Below, one piece after another: positions 5,020-20,823 of a stretch of DNA of 22,552 nt. The translations under genes were made by a program, and so were the position numbers. The DNA is taken from contig JALTXW010000007.1 in the NCBI GenBank assembly GCA_027046565.1, forward strand, positions 1 to 22,552, in the 5' to 3' direction. Position 1 is the first letter of the stretch; each line of letters starts with the position of its first letter. The DNA is from Candidatus Parcubacteria bacterium. Lineage in GTDB: Bacteria; Patescibacteriota; Minisyncoccia; Minisyncoccales; S141-161. Below the pieces are notes generated by a model. That model ran no database searches and had not been told where the DNA came from. It was given only the letters and a program-made list of their open reading frames with translations.

Positions 5020-5850
5020 ATGTCAAAAGAAATCTTGCTTTTCTCTAAAGAGAAATTAAAGGCAATCTTTAAAAAAGAAGGTATATGGCCCAGAAAGGCT
5101 TTGGGCCAAAACTTTTTAATCAACTCTAAAATCGCCCGAAAAATAATTCAAGCTTTAAACTTAACTCCAGAGGATGTAGTAATAGAAATAGGATCGGGCA
5201 TAGGAAGGTTAGGCTTTTTGGTTTCAAAATCTGCAAAAAAGGTAATAGGGATAGAAAAAGATGAAAAATTAGTGAAAGTAGCCAAAAAGCTTTTTAAAGC
5301 TAAAAACTTAGAGTTTAAAAGTGAAGATATTTTAAGCTTCTTAAAAAAACAAAACTTAGAAGGCTTAAAAATAGTAGGCAACATTCCTTATTATCTAACC
5401 GGAAAAATCTTAAGAATACTTTTAGAAAGAGAAGATTTGCCTAAAGTGATAGTCTTAAGCTTGCAAAAAGAAGTAGGGGAGAGAATCATATCTCAACCAC
5501 CTAAAGCTACTCTTTTAGGAAACATTTTGCAATATTTAGCTAAAGTTGAGATAATAGAAAAGAAGATTCCTTCTAACTACTTTTATCCTCCACCTAAGGT
5601 AGAATCTATCCTGTTGAAGATAGAACCTAAAAATAGAGCTTTTAACTCAGATAAAAAAGTTATAAAATTGATGAAGGCAGGGTTTTCTCACCCCAGGAAG
5701 ACTTTAATTAAAAACTTAAAAGAAAAGCTAAACTTAAAAGAAGAAAAAATTAAAGCTGTTTTCAAAGAATGCGATCTCAAGGAAACATCCAGAGCTCAAG
5801 AATTAACTCTTCCCCAATGGGAAAAACTAAAAACAAAGTTAGAGTTTTAA
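5020..5850 (+). CDS. rsmA: 16S rRNA (adenine1518/1519-N6)-dimethyltransferase RsmA/KsgA
   Basis: The LGQNFL hallmark motif is present, along with the SAM-binding motif VIEIGSGIGRLG and the NIPY motif. The length of 276 aa is typical for KsgA. Confidence 0.92.
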   Translation: MSKEILLFSKEKLKAIFKKEGIWPRKALGQNFLINSKIARKIIQALNLTPEDVVIEIGSGIGRLGFLVSKSAKKVIGIEKDEKLVKVAKKLFKAKNLEFKSEDILSFLKKQNLEGLKIVGNIPYYLTGKILRILLEREDLPKVIVLSLQKEVGERIISQPPKATLLGNILQYLAKVEIIEKKIPSNYFYPPPKVESILLKIEPKNRAFNSDKKVIKLMKAGFSHPRKTLIKNLKEKLNLKEEKIKAVFKECDLKETSRAQELTLPQWEKLKTKLEF

Positions 5851-8411
5851 TCTTATTTTTGGCATCCTTTTTTATTTTAGCAAATTCAGCCTTAGCTCAA
5901 GGAGAAGACATCGAAAACTTTATTTCTCCTGATGTAAGACCATCCGATCCTGTAACTGAGATAGTAAAACGAGGAGCTAAAGTTGTTTTAGGATCTTTGG
6001 CAAGTCTGGGACTGTCTATAATAGCTGCCGTAGTCGCAGGCCTAGCTTATGTTGCTTACAAATTTGGTTCTTTAGCTCTATTAGCTTTAGGATGGGCTTT
6101 ATATCAAACTATCAATATCCCTATCTTAAGAGATGCAGCTGGTCAGCCTACTTGGGCCTTAGAAGTAGGATGGAGATTTACCCGAGACTTGGTAAATATG
6201 GTTTTTATCATAATCTTAGCTTGGATTGGAATAGCTACGATTTTAAGGCTTTCAGAATATAGAACTGGAAGGGTATTTTTAAACTTAATCTTGATAGCTT
6301 TGTTAGTAAACTTTAGCCCGGTTTTGGTAGGTTTAGTTATAGACGTATCCAATATAATTGCAGGGTTTTTCATTAACGGAATATTAAACAATCCCCAATC
6401 TACCAACGTGTTAGACTCTTTATGTGTAGGCGATAACGATCCCACCACCGAAGAGCGAGGGATTTGGTGTGCAATGGGGGCTGAAATAGCTACGATTTTA
6501 AGCAAAGCTGCTAACATCACTCCCGACCTTACCGATAACTTAGAAGGTATCTTTGCTTTAGTAGCTTATGGAGGTTTCTTTGTGATAGCTACCTTTGTTT
6601 TTGGATTATTAGCTTTGCTTTTTATCTTTAGAGTAATAGCTTTTTGGATATTGTTAGTGTTAGCTCCAATTGCCTTTGTAGCTTTTATTCTCCCAGCTAC
6701 AAGATGGATTTGGAATATGTGGTGGCACCAGCTTCTGCAATGGGCATTTATAGGAGTGATAGCAGCTTTCTTTATCTTTTTGAGCTTCCAGCTTTTAGAA
6801 GCATCAACCTCTACCCAACTTACTCAAGCTTTTGAATGCGGAACTCCAACTGGAGAATCAATTTGTGATGTAGTAGCTCAAAGAAGCGGAGGAGATAGAG
6901 ATAACCCTTCCGCAATTGCAATCTTTGCGGAAAGAGTTTCAAGGTTTGTGATAGCTTTAGCCTTTATGATAGCAGGGCTATTTTATGGTTTTTCAACCAG
7001 TGCAATGGGAGCTACCACTATAATGAGATTCACTCAAAAGAGAGCTCTTCCTGCAACTTTAAGATTTGCAGGCAGGAGTGCAGCTTGGGTTCCAAGAAAG
7101 GTAATTTCTCATCCTCGAGCTAAAGCCAGAATTCAACAAGCAGCTTTAACTACTCCCACTCTAAGAGAAAGCTTTGCCCAAGCTAAAGGAGTAGGAGGGA
7201 AAATTAAAGCTGTAGCTTTGTCTCCTTTTCGCTTTGCTAAAAGAGAAACCGCTCAACTCTTGTTGAGAGGAGAAGAGTTTGAAAGAAGGAGATTTGAAAG
7301 ATTAGGAAAAGAGTTAGCAGAAAGAAAAACTGAAAGTCAAATTCTAAATACCTTGAGATTTGGAAAAGTTTCCCAAGCCTCTGCATTGGCCCAATCTTTA
7401 GCTCAAAAGGGGGAGCTTAAAGATTACACTCAAAGATTGAGAGAATTAGGGATGGAAGAAAAAACTTTAAACCAAAGAATGAAAGAATTAATCAAATATG
7501 CAGCTGGAATTAGCCCAGATTTAGCTAAAGAGATGGTAAAATCTCAAGTTCATTTAGCAGATGAACTAGCAAAAGAGCTTCCTAGAGATCTAGCTAAATC
7601 TATAGGTTTGAGCTTTAAAGATGAGGAAGAGAGAAGAAAATATGAAGATAGCTTAGTTGCAAAGCTTTTAGATAAGATGGGAACTAAAGATATACCTAAG
7701 ATAGATATAGAGGGGTTGAAGCAATTGTTAGAAAGAGGGTTTGCTTCTCCTGCAGGAAGCAAAGAGTTACTTCAAGCTCAAAAGATAAGAGAACAAATTA
7801 ACCTTTGGGATAACGCTAAGTTTTCTAAAGCTGCCGAAGAGTTTGGAGAAGATTTTGTGAAGATTTTGGAAAAGGAAAAGCCAACTTTAGGCAAAATTTT
7901 AGTAGATTACAAAAATCTATCTCAAGCTACTTGGTTAGCTAGCAATGCCGCTAAAGAAGCAGGAATTCCTTATTCAACTGTGTTATCTCCAAGGCAAGTT
8001 ATAGGTTTGCATCGGACTTTAGAGCTTGCAAAGAAACAACCTGAAATCTTAAAGAAAAATCTTGAAAATGTTAATAAAGAGTTAGAGAGCCTTCAAGAAA
8101 AAGCAGAAAGGCAAGAACTAACTGAAGAAGATTACAGAAGACAACAAGAGTTAGAAGAAATAAGAGAAGTCTTAAGGTATGCTATTGAAAAGCAAGGAGA
8201 AGAAGAAAGGAGAGAGGAAAGAGAAGAAAGAGGTCCTGAAGAAGAAGGACCTACTCCTACTTTACCTTCTATAGGACCCAGAGGTAGAGGCGGATCTTCG
8301 AGAGGAGCGCCCTCAACTCCATCTTTACCACCTCGCGGTAGAGGAAGTGCTCAATCTCCCAACCCTCAACTTCCTCCTTCTATTCCTAGAAGAGGAAGAA
8401 AAATAGAATAG
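5817..8411 (+). CDS. Polytopic membrane protein with signal peptide and long charged/RG-rich C-terminal tail; a possible VirB6/TrbL-like channel component
   Basis: I chose the ATG at 5817 (MGKTKNKVRVLILFLASFFILANSALAQ, a signal peptide with an AxA site) over the track start at 5769, which would overlap rsmA by 80 nt. There are at least 7 hydrophobic helices between residues ~70-420, followed by a ~450-aa helical K/E-rich hydrophilic domain ending in PRGRG repeats. The VirB6-like assignment rests on topology and context only, with no motif-level proof. Confidence 0.55.
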   Translation: MGKTKNKVRVLILFLASFFILANSALAQGEDIENFISPDVRPSDPVTEIVKRGAKVVLGSLASLGLSIIAAVVAGLAYVAYKFGSLALLALGWALYQTINIPILRDAAGQPTWALEVGWRFTRDLVNMVFIIILAWIGIATILRLSEYRTGRVFLNLILIALLVNFSPVLVGLVIDVSNIIAGFFINGILNNPQSTNVLDSLCVGDNDPTTEERGIWCAMGAEIATILSKAANITPDLTDNLEGIFALVAYGGFFVIATFVFGLLALLFIFRVIAFWILLVLAPIAFVAFILPATRWIWNMWWHQLLQWAFIGVIAAFFIFLSFQLLEASTSTQLTQAFECGTPTGESICDVVAQRSGGDRDNPSAIAIFAERVSRFVIALAFMIAGLFYGFSTSAMGATTIMRFTQKRALPATLRFAGRSAAWVPRKVISHPRAKARIQQAALTTPTLRESFAQAKGVGGKIKAVALSPFRFAKRETAQLLLRGEEFERRRFERLGKELAERKTESQILNTLRFGKVSQASALAQSLAQKGELKDYTQRLRELGMEEKTLNQRMKELIKYAAGISPDLAKEMVKSQVHLADELAKELPRDLAKSIGLSFKDEEERRKYEDSLVAKLLDKMGTKDIPKIDIEGLKQLLERGFASPAGSKELLQAQKIREQINLWDNAKFSKAAEEFGEDFVKILEKEKPTLGKILVDYKNLSQATWLASNAAKEAGIPYSTVLSPRQVIGLHRTLELAKKQPEILKKNLENVNKELESLQEKAERQELTEEDYRRQQELEEIREVLRYAIEKQGEEERREEREERGPEEEGPTPTLPSIGPRGRGGSSRGAPSTPSLPPRGRGSAQSPNPQLPPSIPRRGRKIE

Positions 8412-9851: not shown

Positions 9852-10076
9852 ATGAAAACCTTAAAAACTTGGACAGTAAGATTGCTTATCTTTTTGATTC
9901 TTATCTTCCCTTTTGTAAGCAAAGGATTCGTTGTACCTAAAAACCCATCTGGAAGTGAATTAGGAAAAGCTATCGGAGAAAACATTATAAACTGGATACT
10001 ATTTTGGATGGAACTGATAGAAGGGATGGTTAAAGTATTTCAAAAAATAATCAACTCAAAAGCCCCTGGCCTCTAA
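9852..10076 (+). CDS. Small (74 aa) secreted/membrane peptide with N-terminal signal/TM segment
   Basis: An AGGAGG RBS lies 8 nt upstream. The N-terminus has a hydrophobic signal-like segment (LLIFLILIFPFVS) and an amphipathic C-terminal helix. The stop codon sits in the loop of the downstream terminator hairpin. Confidence 0.5.
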   Translation: MKTLKTWTVRLLIFLILIFPFVSKGFVVPKNPSGSELGKAIGENIINWILFWMELIEGMVKVFQKIINSKAPGL

Positions 10077-10100
10077 CGAGGTCAGGGGCTTATTATTTTG
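10061..10100. terminator. Bidirectional rho-independent terminator between convergent small genes
   Basis: A 12-13 bp stem (GCCCCTGGCCTC / GAGGTCAGGGGC, one G-U pair) with loop TAAC is followed by TTATTATTTT on the plus strand and by a T-rich run on the minus strand. It spans both stop codons. Confidence 0.7.
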
Positions 10101-10300
10101 TAAATCATATATCCTATAGCAATGTAGAAGCCTATAAGAAAAGCTAAAGGAATTAAAAAGGTAAGAAAGAAACCAGAAATCTCTGCAATTATATCTAAAG
10201 CTCTTTTTCCTAAGAATTGAACTACACCAACCAAACCAATAATTAAGAAAAACACTAGCACTCCTAACATCCCTAGTAAAAGAAAAAAGATAAATTCCAT
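10082..10300 (-). CDS. Small (72 aa) two-TM membrane protein of unknown function
   Basis: It has two long hydrophobic helices separated by GKRALDIIAE. A strong RBS (GAAAGGAGGGGAGAAAAT-ATG) and a strong upstream promoter are present, and it ends inside the terminator hairpin. Confidence 0.6.
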   Translation of the reverse strand: MEFIFFLLLGMLGVLVFFLIIGLVGVVQFLGKRALDIIAEISGFFLTFLIPLAFLIGFYIAIGYMIYKIISP

Positions 10301-10494: not shown

Positions 10495-10902
10495 ATGGAA
10501 GAATTAACTAGAGAAGAGTTTTGGAAAATTTACAAGCTTTTGCCTAAAGAACTTAAAGAAGCTATCTTTTCTCCAAAAACAGCAGATGCTATAGCTTCAG
10601 CTTTAGACTCAGCTAATATTGAAGATTCAAGAGCAGACTTAGTAGCAAAACTTACAGGACGAGTCTTGCTTGGACTTTTGCCTCCTCAAGACTTTACTCA
10701 AGCTTTGGAAAAAGAAGCTAATCTTTCTCCAGAAGAAGCGAGAAAAGTAGGACTAAAGATTTCAAGATTAGTCTTTTTGCCAGTAAGAGATAAGTTAGAT
10801 TTAATTTATTCAGAAGAGTTAACTCCCGGAAGCAAAGAAAAAGCTTTAAAAGAACCTCAGAAACCAAAATATTACGACCCTTACAGGGAACCGATAGAAT
10901 AA
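10495..10902 (+). CDS. Hypothetical soluble acidic protein, first gene of VirB4 operon
   Basis: The ORF is 135 aa with no TM segments, and the next gene starts 4 nt after its stop. I could not identify a recognisable family from the sequence alone. Confidence 0.5.
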   Translation: MEELTREEFWKIYKLLPKELKEAIFSPKTADAIASALDSANIEDSRADLVAKLTGRVLLGLLPPQDFTQALEKEANLSPEEARKVGLKISRLVFLPVRDKLDLIYSEELTPGSKEKALKEPQKPKYYDPYREPIE

Positions 10903-10906
10903 AAAT

Positions 10907-11323
10907 ATGGCAGAGTTTACAGTACCAAAATTTATTGAAAGAGAACCGGTTTTAATTTGGAAGATAACTTTTAGACAATTTATGATTTTAGCTTTGGGAG
11001 TATTAGTTTTGACCGTCTTAAAATTTGCTTTACCTCCTTTCCTCTTTTATTTAACTACTACATTCTTTGTAATCTTTGCCTTCTTGGCTATCTTTGTCAA
11101 AATACACGGAAGACCTTTCACCACTGTGTTAAAAAACTTTGTGCTGTATACTTTTTCTCCTAAAACTTTCCTATGGAAAAGAAAATCTTCAATGCCAAGA
11201 TTGATTACTAAAGAAAAAAAGCAAAAAGAAAAAACTAAAGAAGATATTTTAGAAAGTCCACTTCAAGTTATAGGCAAAAGCAAACTTAAAGAGATTGCCA
11301 GAAGGGTAGAAACTGGAATTTAA
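10907..11323 (+). CDS. Small two-TM membrane protein, PrgI/VirB3-like candidate
   Basis: The 138-aa protein reads WKITFRQFMILALGVLVL ... FLFYLTTTFFVIFAFLAIFV, i.e. two TM helices preceded by a (L)T-x-RQF motif reminiscent of PrgI-family VirB3 analogues. It sits immediately upstream of VirB4 as in Gram-positive T4SS loci. The C-tail is charged. Confidence 0.45.
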   Translation: MAEFTVPKFIEREPVLIWKITFRQFMILALGVLVLTVLKFALPPFLFYLTTTFFVIFAFLAIFVKIHGRPFTTVLKNFVLYTFSPKTFLWKRKSSMPRLITKEKKQKEKTKEDILESPLQVIGKSKLKEIARRVETGI

Positions 11324-11327
11324 AATT

Positions 11328-11954
11328 ATGGTTAGAACTTCAACCCAACAATTTTTAGAGTTTGATCAAATTAGAGAAGGAGTAATAATTTTAAAAAACA
11401 AAGGATTGAGAGGAATCTTGATGGCTTCTTCTTTGAACTTTGCTTTGCTTCCTCAAGAAGAACAAGATGCAATCACTTACCTCTACCAAGATTTCCTAAA
11501 CTCTTTAGATTTTCCTATCCAAATTTACATTCAATCTCGAAAGCTAAATTTAACTGGATATTTGGACCAAATTAAAGCTTTAGCTGAAAAACAAACTAAC
11601 GAACTTTTAAAAGCTCAAACTGTAGGATACTATAAATTTATCAAACAACTAGTTACGGAAGGAACTATAATGACTAAATCCTTCTATATCGTTATACCTT
11701 TTACCTTAGCTGATATGGGACTCAAAGCAGGAAGAAAAGGAATTATTAATTTAACCGAAAGCTTATTTCAAAAGGCCAAAACTCAGCTTTTTCAAAGAAT
11801 GGAGTTTGTAGCTTTAGGATTAAAAAGATTAGGAATTAGAGCTATCCCTTTAACTACCGCAGAGATAATTGAGCTTTTTTGGGCGATGCACCACCCTCAA
11901 GAGATGGAAGTAGGATATTTTCCAGAAATTCCTCCAGAACTAACTTCTCGATAA
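11328..11954 (+). CDS. VirB4-family N-terminal domain protein (separate ORF)
   Basis: The sequence FDQIREGVIILKNKGLRGILMASSLNFALLPQEEQDAITYLYQDFLNSLDFPIQIYIQSRKLN matches the conserved N-terminal segment of Gram-positive-type VirB4/TraE ATPases (I-dG-i...iN..L.s.eEq......fLNsL.fpiQi). It ends with TAA at 11952-11954, 1 nt before the ATPase ORF, which is in a different frame. Confidence 0.6.
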   Translation: MVRTSTQQFLEFDQIREGVIILKNKGLRGILMASSLNFALLPQEEQDAITYLYQDFLNSLDFPIQIYIQSRKLNLTGYLDQIKALAEKQTNELLKAQTVGYYKFIKQLVTEGTIMTKSFYIVIPFTLADMGLKAGRKGIINLTESLFQKAKTQLFQRMEFVALGLKRLGIRAIPLTTAEIIELFWAMHHPQEMEVGYFPEIPPELTSR

Positions 11955-11955
11955 T

Positions 11956-13758
11956 ATGAAGCTGAAGCTTAATTTACCTTTCTTACAACCTAAAAAGCCA
12001 GAACTTCCAGAGTTAACCTTTGGGGAACCTATTAATGTTAAAGACATTGTAGCTCCGCCTTTTATCGAAATCACCCAAAACTATATTAAATTAGGAGAAA
12101 GATTTGCTAAAACTTTCTTTGTTTTCTCTTATCCCAGATATTTAAGCACAGCTTGGATGTCACCTCTAATTAACTTAGATACCCCTTTTGACATTTCTAT
12201 CTTCATCTTCCCTGCAGATGTAGGTGAAGTGTTAAGGCAATTAAGGAAAAAGGTAGCTGAAGTTCAATCTGAAATTATTGAAAGAGAAGAAAAAGGATTA
12301 GTAAGAGATCCAGAATTAGAAACAGCTTACAGAGACTTAGAAGAGTTAAGAGATAGATTGCAAACTGCTCAAGAAAAGATGTTCCATGTAGGAGTTTATA
12401 TTACAGTTTACGCTAACTCTGAAAAAGAACTTCACGACTTGGAAGCTCAACTAAGATCTATCTTGGAGGCAAGATTAGTTTACATTAAACCTGCAATCTT
12501 TCAACAAAGAGAAGGGTTTATAACTACAGCTCCTTATGGGATGGATCTAATTCAAGTTTACACTCCAATGAATACCGCGCCTTTATCTTCTATGTTTCCT
12601 TTTGTCTCTTATGATCTAAGTTCAAACGAAGGAATCTTGTATGGAATAAACAAACACAACAACTCCTTAGTTTTATTTGATAGATTTACTTTAGAAAATG
12701 CAAACGAAGTAGTTTTTGGAAAAGCAGGTTCAGGTAAAAGCTATGCAGTAAAGCTTGAAATTCTAAGATACCTGATGATGGGAGTAGATGTGATAGTTAT
12801 TGATCCTGAAAACGAATACGAATTTTTAGCTGATGCAGTGGGAGGTTCTTTCTTTAATGTATCTTTAGCTTCTCCTCATAGAATCAATCCTTTTGACCTG
12901 CCTCAGCCTACACCCGAAGAAAGACCTGAAGATGTTTTAAGAAGTAATATCATCAATTTGGTAGGTTTAATTAGGATAATGTTAGGAGGATTAACTCCTG
13001 AAGAAGATGCTATAATTGATTCAGCTTTAACTCAAACTTATGCTATCAAAGATATCACTCCCGAATCAGATCCTGCTACTTGGCCAGAAAAAGTTCCTTT
13101 ATTTTCAGATCTCCAAGATGTCTTAGAAACGATGGAAGGTGCAGAAAGCTTAGTAAGAAGACTTCAAAGGTTCACCACTGGAACCTTTGCAAGCTTTTTT
13201 AATCAGCACACTAACATCTCTATTAACAATAAGTTTGTAGTCTTTGGAATAAGGGATATGGAAGAGAGTTTAAGACCAATTGCAATGTATATCATTATGA
13301 GATTCATCTGGAATGAAATTAGAAGAAAGTTTAAAAAGCGAATCTTAGTAATAGATGAGGCTTGGTGGTTAATGCAAACTGAAGATGGAGCTTCTTTCTT
13401 ATATGGTTTAGCTAAAAGAGGAAGAAAGTATTGGTTAGGAGTTACTACTATCACCCAAGATGTAATTGATTTTTTGAGATCTGATTATGGCAAACCTATA
13501 ATTACCAACTCTTCTTTACAGCTTTTGATGAAGCAAAGCACAGCTGCAGCTGAAACCTTAGTTAAAACCTTCAATTTAACTGAACCAGAAAAGATGTTTT
13601 TGATTGACGCTCCAGTGGGAGAAGGATTATTTTTTGCAGGCCAAAAGCATGTAGCTATTAGAGTAGTCTCTTCTTATGCAGAACATCAAATCATTACTAC
13701 TGCTCCAGAAGAAGTGGCTAAAATTAGAGAGGCTAAAAGGATAATCAAAGGTTACTAA
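11956..13758 (+). CDS. virB4: VirB4/TrbE/TraC-family type IV secretion ATPase (central and C-terminal ATPase domains)
   Basis: The central region typical of VirB4 (FAKTFFVFSYPRYLSTAWMSPLINLDTPFDISIFIFP) is present. Walker A is FGKAGSGKSY, followed by VIVIDPENEY. Walker B is ILVIDEAWWLM, carrying the DEAW signature. The ITQDVIDF and SLQLLMKQS motifs are also present. Confidence 0.9.
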   Translation: MKLKLNLPFLQPKKPELPELTFGEPINVKDIVAPPFIEITQNYIKLGERFAKTFFVFSYPRYLSTAWMSPLINLDTPFDISIFIFPADVGEVLRQLRKKVAEVQSEIIEREEKGLVRDPELETAYRDLEELRDRLQTAQEKMFHVGVYITVYANSEKELHDLEAQLRSILEARLVYIKPAIFQQREGFITTAPYGMDLIQVYTPMNTAPLSSMFPFVSYDLSSNEGILYGINKHNNSLVLFDRFTLENANEVVFGKAGSGKSYAVKLEILRYLMMGVDVIVIDPENEYEFLADAVGGSFFNVSLASPHRINPFDLPQPTPEERPEDVLRSNIINLVGLIRIMLGGLTPEEDAIIDSALTQTYAIKDITPESDPATWPEKVPLFSDLQDVLETMEGAESLVRRLQRFTTGTFASFFNQHTNISINNKFVVFGIRDMEESLRPIAMYIIMRFIWNEIRRKFKKRILVIDEAWWLMQTEDGASFLYGLAKRGRKYWLGVTTITQDVIDFLRSDYGKPIITNSSLQLLMKQSTAAAETLVKTFNLTEPEKMFLIDAPVGEGLFFAGQKHVAIRVVSSYAEHQIITTAPEEVAKIREAKRIIKGY

Positions 13759-13762
13759 AATT

Positions 13763-14107
13763 ATGGAAGAAGAGATTGTTTTAAAATCAAGATTTTATAA
13801 CAATTTAGTAGGACCTGAAGGTGTCCTAATGCTTTCTTTAGCTTTTGGATTTGACTTAATAGAGATTATAGCCAACTTAGTACCTGTAGCTGGCGACTCA
13901 ATAAGCTTAGCAATAGACGTTTTAGCTTTCATATTTATAGGAGGATGGCTAATACTGAGAGGAGAATTTTGGAGAAGAATTACAAAAAGGAGAAAGTTAA
14001 GAATGTTGAAATCCTTGATGATTTTAGCTGAAATTTTACCAATCCCTTTTATAGGAGATCTTCCTTTCTGGACAATTATCGTGTTTACCGAATTAAGAAA
14101 CTCTTAA
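13763..14107 (+). CDS. Small (114 aa) multi-TM membrane protein of unknown function (alternative VirB3-like candidate)
   Basis: It has three hydrophobic segments and a basic loop (RRITKRRKLRMLK). It sits between VirB4 and the first pilin-like gene, and flanking genes are 1-4 nt away. Confidence 0.5.
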   Translation: MEEEIVLKSRFYNNLVGPEGVLMLSLAFGFDLIEIIANLVPVAGDSISLAIDVLAFIFIGGWLILRGEFWRRITKRRKLRMLKSLMILAEILPIPFIGDLPFWTIIVFTELRNS

Positions 14108-14108
14108 A

Positions 14109-14942
14109 ATGCTCCAAGTTACCACCCAAATCCAATATCCAAATTTGCCTCAGACTCCTTTTCCCTCCCCTTTAACTTTACCTTCCTTTTTTAACTACAT
14201 TTACAACCTTTTAATTGTGGCTGGGATAATAATAGCTTTAACTCTGCTAACTAGTGCAGGATTAACCTATCTTTTTTCTGGAACAAATGTTCAGCGTAAA
14301 CTTCAAGCTAAAGAGCAAATAATTTCAGCTTTGTTGGGCTTGGGAATCTTATTAGGTTCTTATCTTATACTTTCAGCTTTAGATCCCAACTTAACTGTGC
14401 CTGCAATTTCTAATCTTCCTCAAATCGAAATCCCAACTTCTCCTCCTATTTCTTATCAACCTTATCGTCCTTCTGCAGTATTGGAAGTAATAGATAGTTA
14501 CGAAAGAGAAACTTTAGAGCTTATTTCTTTTTTGGAAGCTTCAACCTTTAACTTGTATAACTTAATTTTGAGTTTAGAAATCTTAGACTTTACTAAAAAA
14601 GTAGATGAAGCTTTAAAGCTTCCCAACTGCGCTAACACTGAAGCTATCTGCGTTCCAAAAGGACTTTTGCCTATACCTGCTAAATGCGAATGGAAAGAAT
14701 CTCCAGTGAAGTTAGCTTCAGAACTTTTGCAAAAAGACTTGGTGTTAAAAGTTAGAGATCCTATCTTAGAGTTAATAAACTCCCAAAAGCCTAAGGAGTT
14801 AACTTTAACTCTTTCTAAAATTAACAACTGCTTAAGCTCTTTAGAAAAACAGCTTTTTATAGAAGGAGAGTTTCAAGATTACTTAAGCTACTTTAACCTT
14901 TCTTCTAAAGGTCCTTTAACCTTTTATTGTGCTAAAAGATGA
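14109..14942 (+). CDS. VirB2/TrbC-like pilin-hairpin fusion protein, paralogue 1 (277 aa)
   Basis: A QIQYP box lies at residues 7-11. The two-helix hairpin reads LLIVAGIIIALTLLTSAGLTYLFSGTNVQRKLQAKEQIISALLGLGILLGSYLILSALDPNL. The C-terminal domain contains Cys and ends FYCAKR. It overlaps the next gene by 4 nt (ATGA). Confidence 0.6.
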   Translation: MLQVTTQIQYPNLPQTPFPSPLTLPSFFNYIYNLLIVAGIIIALTLLTSAGLTYLFSGTNVQRKLQAKEQIISALLGLGILLGSYLILSALDPNLTVPAISNLPQIEIPTSPPISYQPYRPSAVLEVIDSYERETLELISFLEASTFNLYNLILSLEILDFTKKVDEALKLPNCANTEAICVPKGLLPIPAKCEWKESPVKLASELLQKDLVLKVRDPILELINSQKPKELTLTLSKINNCLSSLEKQLFIEGEFQDYLSYFNLSSKGPLTFYCAKR

Positions 14943-15655
14943 GATTTGGCTTAAAAGAAAAAATTTTAATCTTGGCCGTGGGTTTATCTTTTATCTTTAA
15001 TGGCTTCCCTAATCCTAACGAAGCGAGTTCTATTGGAGAATGCAAGTTGGCTCCAATTGGCCAACCTTCAAAGAGGGCTTTAGAAATTCACAAAGAGTTA
15101 ATCTATTTATTTTTGCTTTTGGAAAATGAGCTCTCTGCTTTAGAAAATAAAGCTTCCCAAGTTTTACCTTTAATTGTCCAATGTTCAATTGACAAATGCA
15201 AAATAGAAAAAGATATGTGCCCTTTTATATGCAAGCCTGAAGAGTGTGAAGTAAAAGCTTCCTGTAAACCTATTTCACCAGACTTTGAAGAAACGGTATG
15301 CTCTCAAGAAGTAAAAGATGAGATTGAAAATATAAAAAAAGAGATAGAACCTATAACAGAGAGCATAAAAGAACTCTTAGTTAAAATTGGAAAGTTAGGT
15401 TCCCCTATACCTATTACTATTGGAGGAATAAATGTAGTAGGAGAATTGTCTGAACTTAAGCAAAAATTAAAAAAGGGAAAAGATATCCTTTTAAACTTTG
15501 ATCCTCAGAAAGAAGTTCTGTTAAACTGCAATCAAGCTAAAAGGTTTAAAGTGGTGCCTTCCTGTTTTCCAGAAATAATCAACTTTTTAGGCATTACCCT
15601 TCCTTTAAGTGATACTCCAGATAGTCAAATTGATTACTTTGTATGCCAAAAATGA
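14939..15655 (+). CDS. Secreted cysteine-containing protein (238 aa)
   Basis: It has a signal-peptide-like N-terminus (ILILAVGLSFIFNG) and ~13 Cys in clusters (CSIDKCKIEKDMCPFICKPEECEVKASCKP). The C-terminus reads YFVCQK. Confidence 0.6.
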   Translation: MRFGLKEKILILAVGLSFIFNGFPNPNEASSIGECKLAPIGQPSKRALEIHKELIYLFLLLENELSALENKASQVLPLIVQCSIDKCKIEKDMCPFICKPEECEVKASCKPISPDFEETVCSQEVKDEIENIKKEIEPITESIKELLVKIGKLGSPIPITIGGINVVGELSELKQKLKKGKDILLNFDPQKEVLLNCNQAKRFKVVPSCFPEIINFLGITLPLSDTPDSQIDYFVCQK

Positions 15656-16842
15656 AAACTTTAATTTTAAAAAGCCTCTTTTTGCTTCTCTTTTCAGCCT
15701 CTTTTGCTTTAGCTCAAAACTTACAGTTAGAATATCCTTCTCCCCCTGGCACCCCTTCGCCTTCAGGAGGAGTAGAAGACTTTTTTAGATATCTTTATAC
15801 TTTCTTACTGATCATAGGAGGAATTTTAGCTGTATCTTTAGTATTTTTAGGAGGTTTTTTTTATCTTACTTCTTTTGGAAATCTTCAAAGAGTATCTCGA
15901 GGAAAAGAGCTTATAGTCTCAGCGTTATTGGGAGCTTTTATTTTATTCTCTTCCCATCTAATATTAAATACTTTAGATCCTTACTTAGTTACTATTCCAA
16001 ATTTAAGAATTAGACCTCTTGTTCTCCCATCTTTTTCTGTTCCGGTTTTAGAAAAAGAAAAAAGAGCAACAGGTTGTCAACCTTTAAATCTTCAAGCTAA
16101 ATTAGAAGCTATTTTTTCTAAAGAGAAGGAAGCTTTAGATATAGCTGAAAAAGCAATAAAACTGGATGCTTTGCAAAAAATAAAACAGAAAACAGAAGAA
16201 ATAGTCAATGTAGTAGCTCAGTGTGATTGCTCTAAATTTCAACCTGAGTGTTTAGTAAAAGATTCGGGTTCTCCTGCTTGTCCTGCAAGATGTCCTCCTA
16301 GTTCTTCTATTCCTCCTCCTCCTTCTGAAGATCCTTGTCCTCCAGAACTTAGATCTAAGTTAATCCCAGAATTAGAGGAAATCTTGGATTTCTATCCTGA
16401 ACTCTTCAGTTTAATAGAAAGCTTTGGATTTGATCTAACTTCAGAACAAGAAGATTTAGTAAAATCTATAATTGATAAACTCTTAATTCAAGACAAAACT
16501 TCTTCTTTTTCTTTGTTTGTAGATAAATTTATAAAAGATTTGGAAGAGTTAGTTTTAAAACAGAATCTTTCTTCAGATCCCCAAGAAAGAAAGAAAAGAA
16601 TAAAAGAATTAGAAAGGTTGTTTTCCCAATCTTTATGGATATTAACTAAAATTTTAACTAATATCACTACTTCTTTGGCTAAGTTAAATTTTGAATTAGA
16701 AAAGATATTGCAAGAAGCTACTCAAGCTCGTACCGATATAGGATCAGTCAAAGTTTTAACTTGTTACCAAGCTTTGGCCGAAGGAAAAGTAGATATTGGA
16801 GAATGCGTAGGAAGGGAGTTGGATTTATATTATTGCAAATAA
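15643..16842 (+). CDS. VirB2/TrbC-like pilin-hairpin fusion protein, paralogue 2 (399 aa), Cys/Pro-rich C-terminal domain
   Basis: The signal peptide (cleavage at ALA-QN) is followed by an LQLEYP box. The hairpin reads FLLIIGGILAVSLVFLGGFFYLTSFGNLQRVSRGKELIVSALLGAFILFSSHLILNTLDPYLV. The C-terminal domain has CDC and CPARCPP motifs and a PPPPSEDPCPP stretch, and ends LYYCK. Confidence 0.65.
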   Translation: MPKMKTLILKSLFLLLFSASFALAQNLQLEYPSPPGTPSPSGGVEDFFRYLYTFLLIIGGILAVSLVFLGGFFYLTSFGNLQRVSRGKELIVSALLGAFILFSSHLILNTLDPYLVTIPNLRIRPLVLPSFSVPVLEKEKRATGCQPLNLQAKLEAIFSKEKEALDIAEKAIKLDALQKIKQKTEEIVNVVAQCDCSKFQPECLVKDSGSPACPARCPPSSSIPPPPSEDPCPPELRSKLIPELEEILDFYPELFSLIESFGFDLTSEQEDLVKSIIDKLLIQDKTSSFSLFVDKFIKDLEELVLKQNLSSDPQERKKRIKELERLFSQSLWILTKILTNITTSLAKLNFELEKILQEATQARTDIGSVKVLTCYQALAEGKVDIGECVGRELDLYYCK

Positions 16843-16843
16843 G

Positions 16844-17875
16844 ATGCAGGGTTTAACTAAAAATAAAATTTGGCTGTTAGTTTTGTTTTCTATCTTTGTT
16901 ATCTCTTTTATCTTTCAAGAGAAAAATCTCGTAGCTCAAACACCAGCCCCAGTCAATCCTACCATTTTGAGAGGTTTAGAAAGTGGAGAGATAAAAATCT
17001 GCGGAAGAGAGATAAACTTAGGAGGGCATTTAGAAAGAGTGAACCTCCATCTTAAAGAATTTCTACCCATACTAACTGATTTGGAAAAATCTTTTGAAGC
17101 TATTCTGCTTAGTGGCAAAAAAATTTCTAATCTTGCTAAAAATTGTTTGAGAGAAAACTGCGGAGCTTCTTGTGGGTGTAGAAATGTGGCGGTTACTAAG
17201 TTTAATTATTGCGAAACAGTTTCTTTAATATGTGAGTGCGAGGTCAAAGGTAATGTCACTATATGCAAAGCTGGAGGCTATAAGATTAGAAAAGATCTAA
17301 ACATAGAATGCAGAGACAAAGGAAAAGTGGTTAAAAAAAGGATAGAACTTCAAGTTCCAGAAGTAGCTTGTTTTCCAAATCAACAAGGCGACTTAATAAA
17401 AATTGAAAAAGTTTGCACTGGAATCCAAGATGTTCCTGAGTGTGGAAGGGAATGCTGCACAGAACAAGGAACAGTATACAATCCGCCAGATATATCCGAA
17501 GGGGGAGTACAGCAGTTGGGATGTCAAAAGGTAGACAGCTGTAAAGCTCAACCTCAACAATGCCAAGGAATAGGAGAAGGACCTTTAGGAACTGCTCCTT
17601 GTCCCGAGGGAATCAATAAAAACTATCAGAACGTTAAAGACTTAATTGAAAATATACCAGATATTTTGAAAGAGTTAGAACAACTTCAGTTTTCAATTTA
17701 CAAGCTAGAGAGAGAAAAAAGAGATTTAGCTAGAACTTTTCGAACCTGGTATTCTCAAAGAGACAAGAAAGATCTGTTTGATTGTATTACGATGCGAAGC
17801 TTGGAAAAATACTTAGTTAAATATCCAGTAGAATGCCCTTATGGAGGTTTAACTTATTTTGAATGTGAAAGATAG
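16844..17875 (+). CDS. Secreted highly cysteine-rich protein (343 aa, ~30 Cys)
   Basis: The signal peptide is KIWLLVLFSIFVISFIF...LVAQ. Dense Cys clusters follow (NCGASCGCRN, CECEV, CGRECCTEQG, CKAQPQQCQG). The C-terminus reads YFECER. Confidence 0.65.
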   Translation: MQGLTKNKIWLLVLFSIFVISFIFQEKNLVAQTPAPVNPTILRGLESGEIKICGREINLGGHLERVNLHLKEFLPILTDLEKSFEAILLSGKKISNLAKNCLRENCGASCGCRNVAVTKFNYCETVSLICECEVKGNVTICKAGGYKIRKDLNIECRDKGKVVKKRIELQVPEVACFPNQQGDLIKIEKVCTGIQDVPECGRECCTEQGTVYNPPDISEGGVQQLGCQKVDSCKAQPQQCQGIGEGPLGTAPCPEGINKNYQNVKDLIENIPDILKELEQLQFSIYKLEREKRDLARTFRTWYSQRDKKDLFDCITMRSLEKYLVKYPVECPYGGLTYFECER

Positions 17876-17891
17876 GTTATAATTTAAAAAT

Positions 17892-19460
17892 ATGAAAAAG
17901 ATTTGGATAATTTTAGCTTTGATAATTTTAAGTTTAGCTTTTAAAGCTGAAGCCCAAATTAAAGAAAGAGGGATCCTACCTCAGTTAGATTATCCTGCAG
18001 TAAGAGGATTAGATTTGGATCAACTAATGAGAGAAGGACAGATTACTTTAGATACCATAGCAAGATATGTTTATTACTTTTTTATAACTATTGGAGGAAT
18101 AGTAGCCTTGACAGGTTTAGTGTTAGCTGGGATAAAGTGGCTGCTATACTCTGGATCTCCGTCAGGAATCTCTGAAGCTAAACAAAGTTTTTTAGCGGTA
18201 TTTTTAGGAATGATAATTCTTTTTGGTTCTTGGGTAATCTTAAACACTTTAGATCCTCACCTCAAAAATCTTCCTTTATTAGGAACTAAAGCCAAAGTCC
18301 CAACTCCTCCAGAAAGAGGACCTTTACCTGGAGAAAGTCATATTAGAATTTATGTGGAACCATCTGCAAACACCAGACTGCCTCGAAGTTTAATAGAAGA
18401 TGGAATTGCGCTTACCGAAGAAAGTTTTCCTATTTTAAATCTTAAAAAGCTTAAAATTGGAAACAAAGTTTATGATTTATCCGGCGGAAATAACTCTGAT
18501 GGAAAGATAGTTGGAGTTAGATTTTTCTTAAAGAGTAAAGGTAGCGGGATAGACTGGGTAGCTCCGAAAGGGCCTACTATTGGAGGAGGAGTAGCACTCT
18601 TGCCTCAAATTCCAGAGTTTCATTATGGAGTAGTATGTTTTGAAGAGCCTCAAAATAGAGGAAGGTTCACACTTGTATTTTCTATGGAAAGTTTAGAATA
18701 TAATCCTCAAACTGGATTTCTAGAAAGTCCTTCTACTCCTATTCCTTTAGTGATTTACAACAATCGCATTTCTGATAATCCCGAATCTCCTTGCCAATCT
18801 TTAGGATTGATAAAAGTTCCCACCGGAGGAGAAGTGGTTGGCCTTCCTTTAGATTCTGAAAACATTACTTTTTATGAATTTCCTTTACCTGAAGCTGTAA
18901 TCCTGACTACTTCAGCTGGAGGTCTAAAAGAGCTTAAAGGAGGATGCATAGAGATAGGTGAGAGGTTAGATTTAGATTGTGAGACCGGAGTCAGTGTAAT
19001 GCCAATAATTGCAGCTTCGATGGGATGGAAAGCATCTTTTGCTCCACCAATTTGTAGGAATTTAAAAGGAAAAACTAAGATAGATCCTGATAAAGACATC
19101 TTTAGAGAATGGTATCCTATGGCAATGGAGCTTTACGCAGAAAATAAAAACAAGTATTTAGTAATCCTGCTTCCAGATATCTCTGAAAATCCCTGGGATC
19201 CGGCTTCACCTAATGGATTTTACATTAGACGAGAAGGGTTTTATGGAGGACCTGCCTACTTTATTACAGGAGTAAGAACAATAGATAGTTTTAAAACTCT
19301 TTCAGATCTTACTTATTGGATTACCAGATATCCTAACCCTTCAAAGCTGTATTATTATGGGCCTGCAGTAGATTTAGACTCTCTATTGGAAGCTGAAAAG
19401 TACGCTCCTAAAAGTTGTATCATCATCCCTATAATCTCAGTCAAGATTCATTCTGGTTAA
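17892..19460 (+). CDS. VirB2/TrbC-like pilin-hairpin fusion protein, paralogue 3 (522 aa)
   Basis: The signal peptide (cleavage after AEA) is followed by the PQLDYPAVRGLDLDQLM box. The hairpin reads FFITIGGIVALTGLVLAGIKWLLYSGSPSGISEAKQSFLAVFLGMIILFGSWVILNTLDPHL. The AGIxWLxxG motif resembles the VAIGISWMFG of VirB2/TrbC pilins. It has a large C-terminal domain. Confidence 0.7.
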   Translation: MKKIWIILALIILSLAFKAEAQIKERGILPQLDYPAVRGLDLDQLMREGQITLDTIARYVYYFFITIGGIVALTGLVLAGIKWLLYSGSPSGISEAKQSFLAVFLGMIILFGSWVILNTLDPHLKNLPLLGTKAKVPTPPERGPLPGESHIRIYVEPSANTRLPRSLIEDGIALTEESFPILNLKKLKIGNKVYDLSGGNNSDGKIVGVRFFLKSKGSGIDWVAPKGPTIGGGVALLPQIPEFHYGVVCFEEPQNRGRFTLVFSMESLEYNPQTGFLESPSTPIPLVIYNNRISDNPESPCQSLGLIKVPTGGEVVGLPLDSENITFYEFPLPEAVILTTSAGGLKELKGGCIEIGERLDLDCETGVSVMPIIAASMGWKASFAPPICRNLKGKTKIDPDKDIFREWYPMAMELYAENKNKYLVILLPDISENPWDPASPNGFYIRREGFYGGPAYFITGVRTIDSFKTLSDLTYWITRYPNPSKLYYYGPAVDLDSLLEAEKYAPKSCIIIPIISVKIHSG

Positions 19461-19464
19461 AAAT

Positions 19465-20823
19465 ATGGTCAAAGCTTTCTTTTATCTACTCTTGATCCCT
19501 CAGCTAGATTACCCTTCAATAGGGGGAAGAGATTTAGATCAAATAATGTTATCTTCTCCTATAGGAGCTACAGTAAGAGATTTAGCTTTGTATCTTTTTG
19601 ATTTTTTAATTTTAAGTGGAGTAATTTTAATCTTATTGAGCTTAACTTTTGCTGGAATAAAGTGGCTTTTAAGCCAAGGCAATCCTGGAAAACTCCTTTC
19701 AGCTAAAAACCAAATGCTTTCTGCTTTGACCGGAGGTTTCATCTTATTGGCTTCTTGGGTAATCTTAAATACTTTAGATCCTTATTTGGTAAGGATAAGA
19801 GAACTGCCTAACTTTTCAATTCAAACTCCAAATAAAAAACCTTTAGAGAAAGGAAATAAAATAATTTTAATCATTGAACCGTCGTCAAATTCTAAGCTTC
19901 CCTTAGGAATTCAAACAAGAAAGAGGATAGTTTTAGATGAAAACTCTTTTCCTATTCCAGATATAACTAAGTTTAAGTTAGGAGGTAGAACTTATGATCT
20001 ATCTGGAAAACCTAACTCTGATGCTAAAATTTTAGGTATAAAGTTTGAAATAGAAGCAGAAAAGGATACAGAAAAGTTAGATTGGAACAAAGGTTTAGTC
20101 AAAAATCCTCCCCAATTCCATTATGGAGTTTTATGTTTTGAAAAGAAAAGTTACAAAGGAAAATTGGAAATCGTGTTTTCATTTATGCCCGAAAAGTATA
20201 AAGACCCTCCTGGGATTTGGATTACTAACTTACGAGAACTAAAAGTAAAGTATGGAGGTTTAAACTCTCCTTGTCAATCTTTAGGACTAATAAAAGTCCC
20301 TCTTCCTCACAAACTTTTAAGTTTGCCAAGTTACGGAGATAACCTTACCTTCTACGAAAATCCCTTTCCTCAAAGATACAAAGTAAACATAGATCCTACT
20401 ACCGGCAAAGAAAGCTTCGAATTAATTGGAGAATGTATAGAATTAGGAGATAGAGCAGACCTTAATTGCAGAATCACTACTCCTAATTTATTGCCTATTC
20501 ACAGAATAGGGACACCGTGGTGGGAATGGTTTTTAGTACAAGGTTGTGTTAATTTAAGTTTGCCAGGAGGCAAATTTCCTACCTCTTTAGAGGTTTACCC
20601 TGCTAACATTCAGCTTTATTTGATTTTATTATTAGATACTGCCTATCCTAACCCTGGAGCTTATTTTTCATCTAACTATAGCCTTTCTGCTAATCCTTTT
20701 TATTATGTTTTTGGAATCACTCAAATAAACAACTTTGACCAGCTTCCCAAAGAGATAAGAAAGAGACCCAAAAGTTGCGCTATCGTGCCCATCGACGGAA
20801 TAAAGATAGAGAAAGTATTTTAA
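19465..20823 (+). CDS. VirB2/TrbC-like pilin-hairpin fusion protein, paralogue 4 (452 aa), tandem duplicate of paralogue 3
   Basis: The PQLDYPSIGGRDLDQIM box lies at residues 12-28, followed by the same hairpin and the SWVILNTLDPYLV motif. The C-terminal domain shares motifs with paralogue 3 (FHYGV-CFE, SPCQSLGLIKVP, YDLSG-NSD-KI-G, IE-G-R-DL-C, KSC-I-PI). The 30-nt nucleotide islands match paralogue 3 at 29 of 30 positions. Confidence 0.7.
   Translation: MVKAFFYLLLIPQLDYPSIGGRDLDQIMLSSPIGATVRDLALYLFDFLILSGVILILLSLTFAGIKWLLSQGNPGKLLSAKNQMLSALTGGFILLASWVILNTLDPYLVRIRELPNFSIQTPNKKPLEKGNKIILIIEPSSNSKLPLGIQTRKRIVLDENSFPIPDITKFKLGGRTYDLSGKPNSDAKILGIKFEIEAEKDTEKLDWNKGLVKNPPQFHYGVLCFEKKSYKGKLEIVFSFMPEKYKDPPGIWITNLRELKVKYGGLNSPCQSLGLIKVPLPHKLLSLPSYGDNLTFYENPFPQRYKVNIDPTTGKESFELIGECIELGDRADLNCRITTPNLLPIHRIGTPWWEWFLVQGCVNLSLPGGKFPTSLEVYPANIQLYLILLLDTAYPNPGAYFSSNYSLSANPFYYVFGITQINNFDQLPKEIRKRPKSCAIVPIDGIKIEKVF

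Follow-up and report, generated by a model that had tools for sequence, protein, structure and literature searches.

PF18895-type pilin-module proteins with large C-terminal extensions in a T4SS operon of a Paceibacteria-type genome

Results

Gene content of the operon

The window analysed here is the whole stretch of 22,552 nucleotides of contig JALTXW010000007.1 from a Candidatus Parcubacteria bacterium. The operon is chromosomal, with rnpA-yidC-jag beside it; the genome is of Paceibacteria type, and all genes described below are on the + strand. Further upstream, 5769..8411 encodes an extended VirB6/TrbL-like polytopic membrane protein of 880 aa (Pfam TrbL, E 0.0059); besides 7-8 hydrophobic segments it has a large hydrophilic tail. 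The orthologous array in another contig, L090, has a TrbL-annotated neighbour that shares 34.5% identity with this protein over 692 aa. A strong terminator was found at 10060-10091, upstream of the first operon gene (10495..10902), which encodes a small conserved protein of unknown function with 40-45% identity to its positional counterparts in related loci; the terminator scan detected no strong terminator within the operon. Next come a PrgI family (VirB3-like) gene (10907..11323; PF12666 30.5 bits, cut-off 27), a separate N-terminal VirB4 piece that is TrsD-like (11328..11954; NCBIfam VirB4_plasma positions 103-233, E 2e-6; TrsD, E 4e-4; 59-61% identity in related loci) and a VirB4-family ATPase of 600 aa (11956..13758; NCBIfam conju_CD1110 378 bits, cut-off 325). 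The best relatives of this VirB4 were 63-72% identical and came from MAGs of Nealsonbacteria, Staskawiczbacteria and other Paceibacteria. A small polytopic membrane protein (13763..14107) travels with the array; phmmer found it 36 times in related loci, usually immediately behind virB4. No relaxase or coupling protein was found nearby, and no VirB8/VirB9/VirB10-like protein was detected in the window.

The array follows as part of the same tight operon, with genes overlapping or closely spaced. Four genes with a pilin module, interrupted by two without it, begin 351 nt after the virB4 stop; their position directly behind PrgI/VirB3 and VirB4 supports the pilin reading of the first-pass annotation. 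A1 (14109..14942; module nt 14175-14414) encodes 277 aa, with a Pro-rich linker and an extension ending FYCAKR. B1 (14939..15655) encodes a secreted Cys-rich protein of 238 aa with 11 Cys and a signal-like N-terminus, ending YFVCQK and lacking a pilin module. A2 (15643..16842; module nt 15772-15999; 399 aa) has a signal peptide and a Cys-rich, mostly helical extension ending LYYCK. Its true start is probably 15652, which would overlap the stop of the gene before it in an ATGA. B2 (16844..17875), again secreted, Cys-rich and without the module, has 343 aa, 22 Cys and a signal peptide, ends YFECER and was linked by iterative profile to Cys-rich proteins of related loci, both with and without a fused pilin module. 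C1 (17892..19460; module nt 18039-18275; 522 aa) consists of a signal peptide, a PQLDYP motif, the module, a Pro-rich linker and a beta-rich extension (approximately nt 18342-19448), and C2 (19465..20823; module nt 19570-19800; 452 aa) is its full-length paralog. For B1 and B2, considered as VirB5-type minor pilins, no VirB5/TraC family was among the Pfam/NCBIfam matches at E up to 1, and a PDB profile search gave weak coiled-coil hits only.

A two-helix module shared by four proteins

A two-helix module of about 80 aa, closing in L(N/S)(T/A)LDP, was found in exactly four ORFs of the window. The clade HMM placed it at residues 23-102 of A1, 44-119 of A2, 50-128 of C1 and 36-112 of C2, with scores of 83-88 bits (87 for A1), the next-best window ORF having an E of 0.12. 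Pairwise BLASTP of module against module gave E 1e-13 to 1e-15. With PF18895 (T4SS_pilin; curated gathering cut-off 26.6 bits), C1 (29.7 bits) and C2 (27.2 bits) scored above the cut-off, and A1 (24.1 bits, E 4e-5) and A2 (22.5 bits, E 1e-4) slightly under it. The C1 module alone reached 34.2 bits, and 77 of the 85 related modules of the clade were matched. All three methods bear out the common module that the first-pass annotation had read from the translations, and the profile check places it in PF18895. The motifs quoted there (IGGI, AGIKWLL, LNTLDP[YH]L) are present, together with LSALDPNL in A1.

Hydropathy and column statistics showed a signal/leader region and then a pair of hydrophobic helices with a short polar loop between them, as in PF18895. 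Across the clade the loop is rich in K/R and the region before helix 1 is acidic. An (N/D)P motif, with its P 98% conserved, ends helix 2, and a flexible linker rich in Pro comes next. The AF2 model of the hairpin had helices at H53-85 and H97-125 (pLDDT 65-73), and a structure search with the hairpin returned generic helical hairpins only.

The module had previously been likened to VirB2/TrbC. This resemblance was reproduced in register but fell short in score: hhalign of the module alignment against eight annotated VirB2/TrbC proteins paired the whole hairpin over 63 columns, AGIKWLLYSG here with AIGISWMFGR there, but with E 0.03 and a probability of 1.7%. The PF04956 (VirB2/TrbC) scores of A2 (17.1 bits, E 0.0065) and the C1 module (16.5 bits, E 0.0098) were under the curated cut-off of 27.9 bits, and only 3/85 relatives were matched (best E 1.3e-5). 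Canonical members such as Agrobacterium VirB2 share with the proteins described here a signal peptide ending AxA before Q, a hydrophobic helix pair with a short loop and a gene adjoining virB3/virB4. However, VirB2 has 100-120 aa, is cyclised and carries no extra domain, and canonical VirB2/TrbC precursors in general are hairpin-only proteins of ~70-145 aa, whereas the proteins here have large C-terminal domains and a total length of 277-522 aa; the host is also a monoderm with a Gram-positive-type T4SS, unlike the canonical setting. A small two-helix protein beside an MPF-FATA-type VirB4 is also known from Mollicutes ICEs (NCBIfam NF045849, Mbov_0395 family). This model matched C1 at E 1.7e-4, far under its curated cut-off (21 vs 40 bits), and its companion model VirB4_plasma matched the window VirB4, but the Mollicutes protein has ~80 aa and no extension.

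C-terminal extensions and topology

The large C-terminal extensions noticed at first pass, and given there as 200-430 aa, measured 175 (A1), 280 (A2), 394 (C1) and 340 aa (C2). They are not four different domains as had been claimed: C1 and C2 are 34% identical over 510 aa (E 2e-78), and with the module removed they still aligned at z 65. The A2 extension was weakly related to the module-less B1 (z 5.1) and B2 (z 3.1, also by a profile link), and that of A1 had no detectable relative in the window (z 2.0 vs A2). In A2 and C1 a signal peptide is followed by two hydrophobic helices, so that the large domains are predicted to lie outside the cell. The extracellular topology proposed earlier is therefore supported for these two proteins, but A1 and C2 have no clear signal peptide.

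The C1/C2 extension resembles a beta-gamma-crystallin-like double domain, with a double Greek-key fold and [YF]xxxx[YF]xG...S-type motifs in its family. Pfam Crystall (PF00030) matched one of 13 relatives of this extension (E 0.061), the best Foldseek hit against PDB had E 0.86, and a canonical Ca-binding motif was not evident. Long insertions set the domains apart from microbial beta-gamma-crystallins (Protein S, clostrillin, M-crystallin, spherulin 3a, DdCAD-1), and conserved Cys pairs occupy the usual place of the Ca-binding motif. No fusion of a crystallin-fold protein with a T4SS pilin module is known to us.

Conservation in related loci

The comparison set consisted of 80 loci with a VirB4 63-72% identical to that of the window and contained 112 module-bearing ORFs, 108 of them at least 200 aa long. 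Their median length was 490 aa, as compared to the short characterised Saccharibacteria pilins. In 41/62 loci a module ORF followed virB4 on its strand at a distance of at most 8 kb. The number of copies per locus was 1-4, their length 127-2075 aa, and the type of extension varied widely. A signal-like N-terminus was present in 99 of the 112 and a further membrane segment in only one. The Cys-rich character ascribed to the extensions holds across these relatives (Cys 4.7% of residues, an even Cys count in 89/112). Related database proteins carry 2-9 tandem modules per chain.

In L090 we found a positional ortholog for each of the six cassette genes, in the same order and with 22-31% identity. 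Those of A1 (full-length, 29% over 291 aa, E 5e-27), B1 (26% over 255 aa, E 4e-20), A2 (31% over 385 aa, E 5e-34) and B2 (E 7e-10) illustrate the relationship. The array there is headed by an ortholog of the 13763..14107 gene and no virB4 is present, indicating that the array can stand apart from virB4. The cassette is thus a conserved set of distinct components, and not a free mix of adhesins.

Discussion

The core idea is not new, because VirB2-like pilin arrays beside virB4 in Patescibacteria have already been published (Quinonero-Coronel et al. 2025, PMC12102498; Wang et al. 2023, PMC10633639). Such arrays, defined as at least two PF18895/PF04956 genes in tandem or with one non-pilin gene between them near virB4, adjoin virB4 in 383 assemblies and include ones interrupted by non-pilin genes (PMC12102498). 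The array of S. epibionticum (SEML1_0014-0019) is essential (PMC10633639). As here, the published arrays have PF18895 with weak PF04956, tandem divergent copies with non-pilin genes between, PrgI/VirB3 and VirB4 beside them on the chromosome, close to the origin and to rnpA and ksgA, and no relaxase or coupling protein nearby. In contrast, the Saccharibacteria pilins are short (SEML1_0017-0019 are genes of 381-417 nt), whereas every copy here has an extension of 175-394 aa. Protein length, fused domains and positional orthology of the cassette are not mentioned in PMC12102498 or PMC10633639. The large Cys-rich fused domains and the conserved six-gene layout with positional orthologs in another contig appear to be new. 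In Paceibacteria-methanogen cultures, PF18895 proteins ranked with the extracellular proteins of highest expression.

We favour, with a probability of about 0.6, a pilin array of a chromosomal Gram-positive-type T4SS of Paceibacteria in which the pilin is a mere N-terminal handle of a much larger protein; its most likely role is host contact or surface display linked to the T4SS. All four proteins would sit in the cytoplasmic membrane via their PF18895 hairpins, with both termini outside and the short basic loop in the cytoplasm. Helix 2 would be followed by the (N/D)P cap, the Pro-rich linker and a disulfide-bonded extracellular domain, predicted to be a beta-gamma-crystallin-like double domain in C1 and C2, Cys-rich and helical in A2 and an orphan in A1. 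In B1 and B2, related Cys-rich domains would follow a plain signal peptide, and the 13763..14107 membrane protein accompanies the set. The VirB4/VirB3/VirB6 machine may treat the hairpins like VirB2-type pilins, and a heteromeric surface structure could then arise from the six proteins, be it a short pilus, a stalk or a tip complex, with outer domains that touch the host cell. Counting against this reading, the similarity to true VirB2/TrbC stayed under the thresholds, PDB sequence searches with the module as query gave no matches, the clade HMM scan found no short stand-alone pilin on the 22.5-kb contig, two of the proteins have no clear signal peptide and the crystallin-like domains no evident Ca-binding motif. 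To our knowledge there is also no VirB2-type pilus with a globular domain of 175-394 aa on each subunit, and packing would be expected to be tight if every subunit bore one. It is conceivable, though we consider it unlikely, that in Paceibacteria the hairpin is no classical pilus building block but a T4SS-recognised handle by which VirB4 pulls large disulfide-bonded proteins out of the membrane and assembles them, with six fixed subunits (four hairpin-anchored, two secreted) forming a new heteromeric host-contact organelle and the poly-pilin chains of 2-9 modules as a variant.

Other readings were weighed. The proteins might be precursors, cut near (N/D)P to free the Cys-rich or crystallin-like domain in secreted or wall-associated form and to leave a short polymerising pilin. 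The conserved P with its flexible linker would suit such a cut, tandem modules make sense in polyproteins, the same Cys-rich domain occurs on a plain signal peptide, and the contig has no short pilin. C-terminal trimming of a pilin precursor is also established for RP4 TrbC. However, the operon has no protease gene recognisable by Pfam/NCBIfam and (N/D)P may be merely a helix cap at the membrane surface, and we find this route rather improbable. Similarly doubtful is that the hairpin only docks the proteins to the T4SS channel, where they would never polymerise and, as static wall-spanning or scaffold parts, would functionally replace the missing VirB8/VirB9/VirB10-like components. Structural parts would be expected to form a fixed set of distinct subunits conserved in position, as the cassette does, none of those three components was detected in the window, and the large domains seem ill-suited to tight helical packing. 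Yet the array can be apart from virB4, copy number and extension type vary in a way unusual for a core scaffold, and short PF18895 members also match TrbC/VirB2.

The paralogs may instead be interchangeable variants in an adhesin repertoire, each tuned to a different host strain. An antigenic-variation or host-strain reading has been proposed and discussed for pilin arrays (PMC12102498), and the first-pass annotation also implied it. Extensions have indeed been swapped wholesale between loci with ~70% identical VirB4, and phmmer over the 80 loci gave no hits for the C1/C2 or A1 domains. We nevertheless regard this as the least probable account: the six positional orthologs in L090 at 22-31% identity indicate that the copies are old and non-redundant, not recent variants, and the operon is tight with no switching elements seen.

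The T4SS with its pilin array is essential in the sole genetically tractable patescibacterium and is thought to form the host-cell contact or conduit. In a large clade of Paceibacteria these "pilins" are proteins of 300-1200 aa with disulfide-rich outer domains. Should they constitute a conserved set of several subunits, a simple VirB2 pilus would be the wrong picture, and the outer domains would be concrete candidates for host recognition. In enrichment cultures the proteins offer clear targets for antibodies, cryo-ET labelling, binding assays and structural studies.

Pilin-like module and its relation to VirB2/TrbC

With a profile of 85 related modules, the two-helix module was found in exactly four ORFs of the window, starting at nucleotides 14109, 15643, 17892 and 19465 (83–88 bits), and the next-best ORF had an E value of 0.12. 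As this profile contains the window sequences, Pfam served as the independent test. The T4SS_pilin family PF18895 (cut-off 26.6 bits) gave 29.7 bits for 17892, 27.2 for 19465, 24.1 for 14109 and 22.5 for 15643. The module spans ~80 residues. An acidic lead-in bearing the conserved motif [LI]x[LIV]xYP comes before helix 1, a loop (consensus S-x-G-N-P...A-K-x-R) leads to helix 2, and a nearly invariant (N/D)P forms the cap. The motifs and coordinates in the first-pass annotation were correct, and the observation is real.

The hairpin had also been likened to VirB2/TrbC pilins. When it was compared by hhalign with an alignment of eight plasmid-encoded proteins that carry a VirB2 or TrbC/VirB2 annotation, the whole hairpin was in register and the proposed pairing of AGIKWLL with AIGISWMF was recovered, but only with an E value of 0.03 and a probability of 1.7%. 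The TrbC/VirB2 family PF04956 scored 15643 at 17.1 bits and the module of 17892 at 16.5 bits, and matched 3 of the 85 relatives (best E 1.3e-5). Short PF18895 members of S. epibionticum also match PF04956 in the published annotation, at ~1e-6, and the PF18895 family has been found next to virB4 in 1135 assemblies (PMC12102498). Homology of the module to VirB2 is probable, on the basis of context and family name more than of direct similarity. The pilin interpretation is reasonable, and its core idea has already been published. A reading as type IV pilus (T4P) pilins was rejected: a Sec-type signal is followed by two membrane helices, there is no class III signal, and PF18895 is matched. A word-indexed homolog search with ORF 17892 returned only itself and its paralog, and PDB sequence searches with the full paralog pair and the 85-module profile gave nothing, or membrane-helix and coiled-coil noise.

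Occurrence of long module-bearing proteins

In 80 related loci, retrieved by way of VirB4, 112 module-bearing ORFs were detected, of which 108 were at least 200 aa long (median 490, maximum 2075 aa). The module started around residue 40–60 in most of them. The virB4 strand was shared by 101 of 111 module-bearing ORFs, and in 41 of the 62 loci with enough sequence a module ORF was located downstream of virB4 at a distance of no more than 8 kb. With the 17892/19465 pair as query, an exhaustive HMMER search gave 10,446 cluster representatives at E ≤1e-3; the best 150 of these measured 134–1147 aa (median 421 aa). Two to nine tandem modules per polypeptide were present in 29 of the best 150 (e.g. 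P0029, P0068, P0077, P0016 and P0022), with nine modules in the 1147-aa P0029, and the [LI]x[LIV]xYP motif precedes modules in P0004, P0005 and P0014. These tandem-module chains may be polyproteins, or membrane proteins with several hairpins. The Saccharibacteria pilins that have been studied by experiment are short (SEML1_0017–0019, genes of 381–417 nt), whereas the proteins described here are mostly long. The published accounts consulted regard all of them as small pilins of the VirB2 type and mention neither length nor fused domains (PMC12102498, PMC10633639).

Topology and nature of the C-terminal extensions

Clear signal peptides were found in 15643 (ALA-Q) and 17892 (AEA-Q), followed by two membrane helices, which places the C-terminal domains outside the cell. 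Among the 112 module-bearing ORFs from related loci, 99 had a signal-like N-terminus and only one had a further hydrophobic segment. These figures agree with the predicted extracellular position of the large domains, as proposed. Cysteine made up 4.7% of the extension residues in these 112 ORFs as compared to 1.7% in all ORFs; at least four cysteines were present in 103 of them and an even number in 89, as expected for disulfide-bonded extracellular domains.

The view that the four proteins carry four different C-terminal domains did not hold, since 17892 and 19465 are full-length paralogs (34% identity, E 2e-78; z 65 without the module). Between the 15643 extension and the interleaved ORFs that have no module there is weak similarity (z 5.1 with 14939, z 3.1 with 16844), and the window contains no relative of the 14109 extension. 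An extension common to 14109 and 15643, suggested by a 259-aa BLAST alignment, was dropped, as z was 2.0 after module removal.

The 17892/19465-type extension was aligned in 13 sequences, namely the two window proteins and 11 relatives of full length that the exhaustive HMMER search had supplied. Its consensus fits a Greek-key signature (YGVxCFExPxFxGR...PCxSxxxFR and DxIxFYExPxP), and Cys 249, 301, 352 and 363 of ORF 17892 are invariant. The crystallin-like fold of the model has moderate support. Counting against this assignment, Pfam Crystall found practically nothing (one of the 13 relatives, E 0.061), conserved cysteines take the place of the usual Ca-binding motif, and a Foldseek comparison of the extension model, the check that had been proposed for the C-terminal domains, found nothing significant in the PDB. 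A word-indexed search with the 13-sequence profile returned only the database relatives P0018 and P0001, and a PDB sequence search with it gave nothing, or membrane-helix and coiled-coil noise.

The 15643 and 16844 domains fall into one Cys-rich family in a local iterative profile search. In related loci this family occurs both fused to the pilin module (e.g. L041_3853, L065_3796, L052_12095) and on its own after a signal peptide (L008_13932, L014_13441, L079_3146). It had no Pfam, NCBIfam or PDB match other than membrane-helix and coiled-coil noise in the PDB search. A VirB5-like identity of 14939 and 16844 was dropped, as neither matched such a family in Pfam or NCBIfam. The sequence N-[FYW]-[FY]-C-C-x(0-3) forms the extreme C-terminus of many Cys-rich proteins of related T4SS loci, whether or not they carry a pilin module (L019, L026, L008, L014 and other loci). 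One-Cys versions of the tail in the window (FYCAKR, 14925–14942; YFVCQK, 15638–15655; LYYCK, 16825–16842; YFECER, 17858–17875) belong to 14109, 14939, 15643 and 16844. This tail may serve as a signal for sorting or for cross-linking.

T4SS operon and surroundings

The 22.5-kb contig has a G+C content of ~33%. All genes from 10495 to 20823 are on the + strand with stop/start overlaps or gaps of 1–17 nt, and a terminator scan found no strong terminator inside this operon. A strong bidirectional terminator-like hairpin (10056–10091, with the terminator at 10060–10091; 14-bp stem, 9 G-C pairs) lies directly upstream, flanked by convergent small membrane-protein ORFs (9852–10076, +; 10082–10300, −), and is the upstream limit of the T4SS operon. 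The operon opens with the gene for a small conserved protein (10495, +). Next come PrgI/VirB3 (+; PF12666, 30.5 bits), a separate 208-aa TrsD-like N-terminal piece of VirB4 (11328–11954, +), the 600-aa VirB4 ATPase (11956–13758, +; NCBIfam conju_CD1110, 378 bits), and a polytopic membrane protein of 114 aa that matches DUF4112 only weakly (13763–14107, +), followed by the six ORFs from 14109 to 19465. One base separates the two VirB4 pieces, and the split is kept in related loci at 59–61% identity. The 13763 protein has a very basic loop (RRITKRRKLRMLK). Its gene directly follows virB4 in many loci and heads the pilin cassette in L090 (contig FWWL01003424.1), where there is no virB4, which suggests that it is part of the array.

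The exact product of 399 aa from the ATG at 15643 is absent from the protein collection, in which the products of all neighbours are present; translation probably starts instead at the ATG at 15652, which overlaps the stop codon before it (ATGA).

Upstream neighbours are genes for an extended VirB6/TrbL-like protein, an SPFH/Band 7-domain (HflK-like) protein, ksgA, a LysM-M23 peptidase, comM/yifB and a dksA/traR-type zinc-finger gene; jag, yidC and rnpA lie downstream. VirB4 is 63–72% identical to that of Nealsonbacteria, Staskawiczbacteria and other Paceibacteria MAGs. The gene neighbourhood and these VirB4 relatives indicate a chromosomal, origin-proximal T4SS locus as published for Patescibacteria; for a phage origin, no PHROGs match was found. 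The LysM-LysM-M23 peptidoglycan endopeptidase (4017–4982, −), which is encoded near the T4SS genes and, in L090, next to the orthologous array as well, could be a wall-opening enzyme replacing a VirB1 homolog. A 682-aa Glu/Lys-rich ORF (109–2157; 117 E, 108 K, one hydrophobic segment) had no family match and probably extends past the start of the contig. In L090 the same neighbourhood contains a relative of 953 aa (29% identity).

Conserved cassette and possible assembly

L090 carries the same genes as the window cassette in the same order. Its products of 130, 312, 260, 396 and 326 aa correspond to 13763 (33% identity), 14109 (29% over 291 aa, E 5e-27), 14939 (E 4e-20), 15643 (E 5e-34) and 16844 (E 7e-10), and three proteins of 487, 500 and 471 aa correspond to 17892 and 19465 (25–29% identity). 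The array adjoins the same VirB6-like gene (34.5% identity), ksgA, LysM-M23, comM and dksA/traR genes, with no virB4 on this stretch. Each cassette gene is thus an old, distinct component, which argues for heteromeric assembly and against interchangeable variants of recent origin. In loci with VirB4 ~70% identical, the 17892/19465 and 14109 extensions were undetectable; VirB6, PrgI and 13763 were still found. Over this range the extension domains are replaced.

In the solved VirB2-type pili (F- and T-pilus) both termini are on the outer surface, and the C-terminal domain would therefore face outward. VirB4, VirB3 and VirB6 would handle the hairpins as VirB2 pilins are handled, and the proteins might be polymers, tip or stalk parts, or cleaved. 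Cleavage at the (N/D)P-linker junction, giving a short pilin and a released domain, is a live alternative in view of the poly-module proteins among the database relatives and the unfused homologs of the Cys-rich domain.

PF18895 proteins are among the most strongly expressed extracellular proteins in Paceibacteria-methanogen cultures (cf. co-cultures, PMC10936435). The large fused domains, near-universal in the clade, the modelled crystallin-like fold and the conservation of the six-gene cassette make up a variant that appears to be undescribed and merits follow-up.
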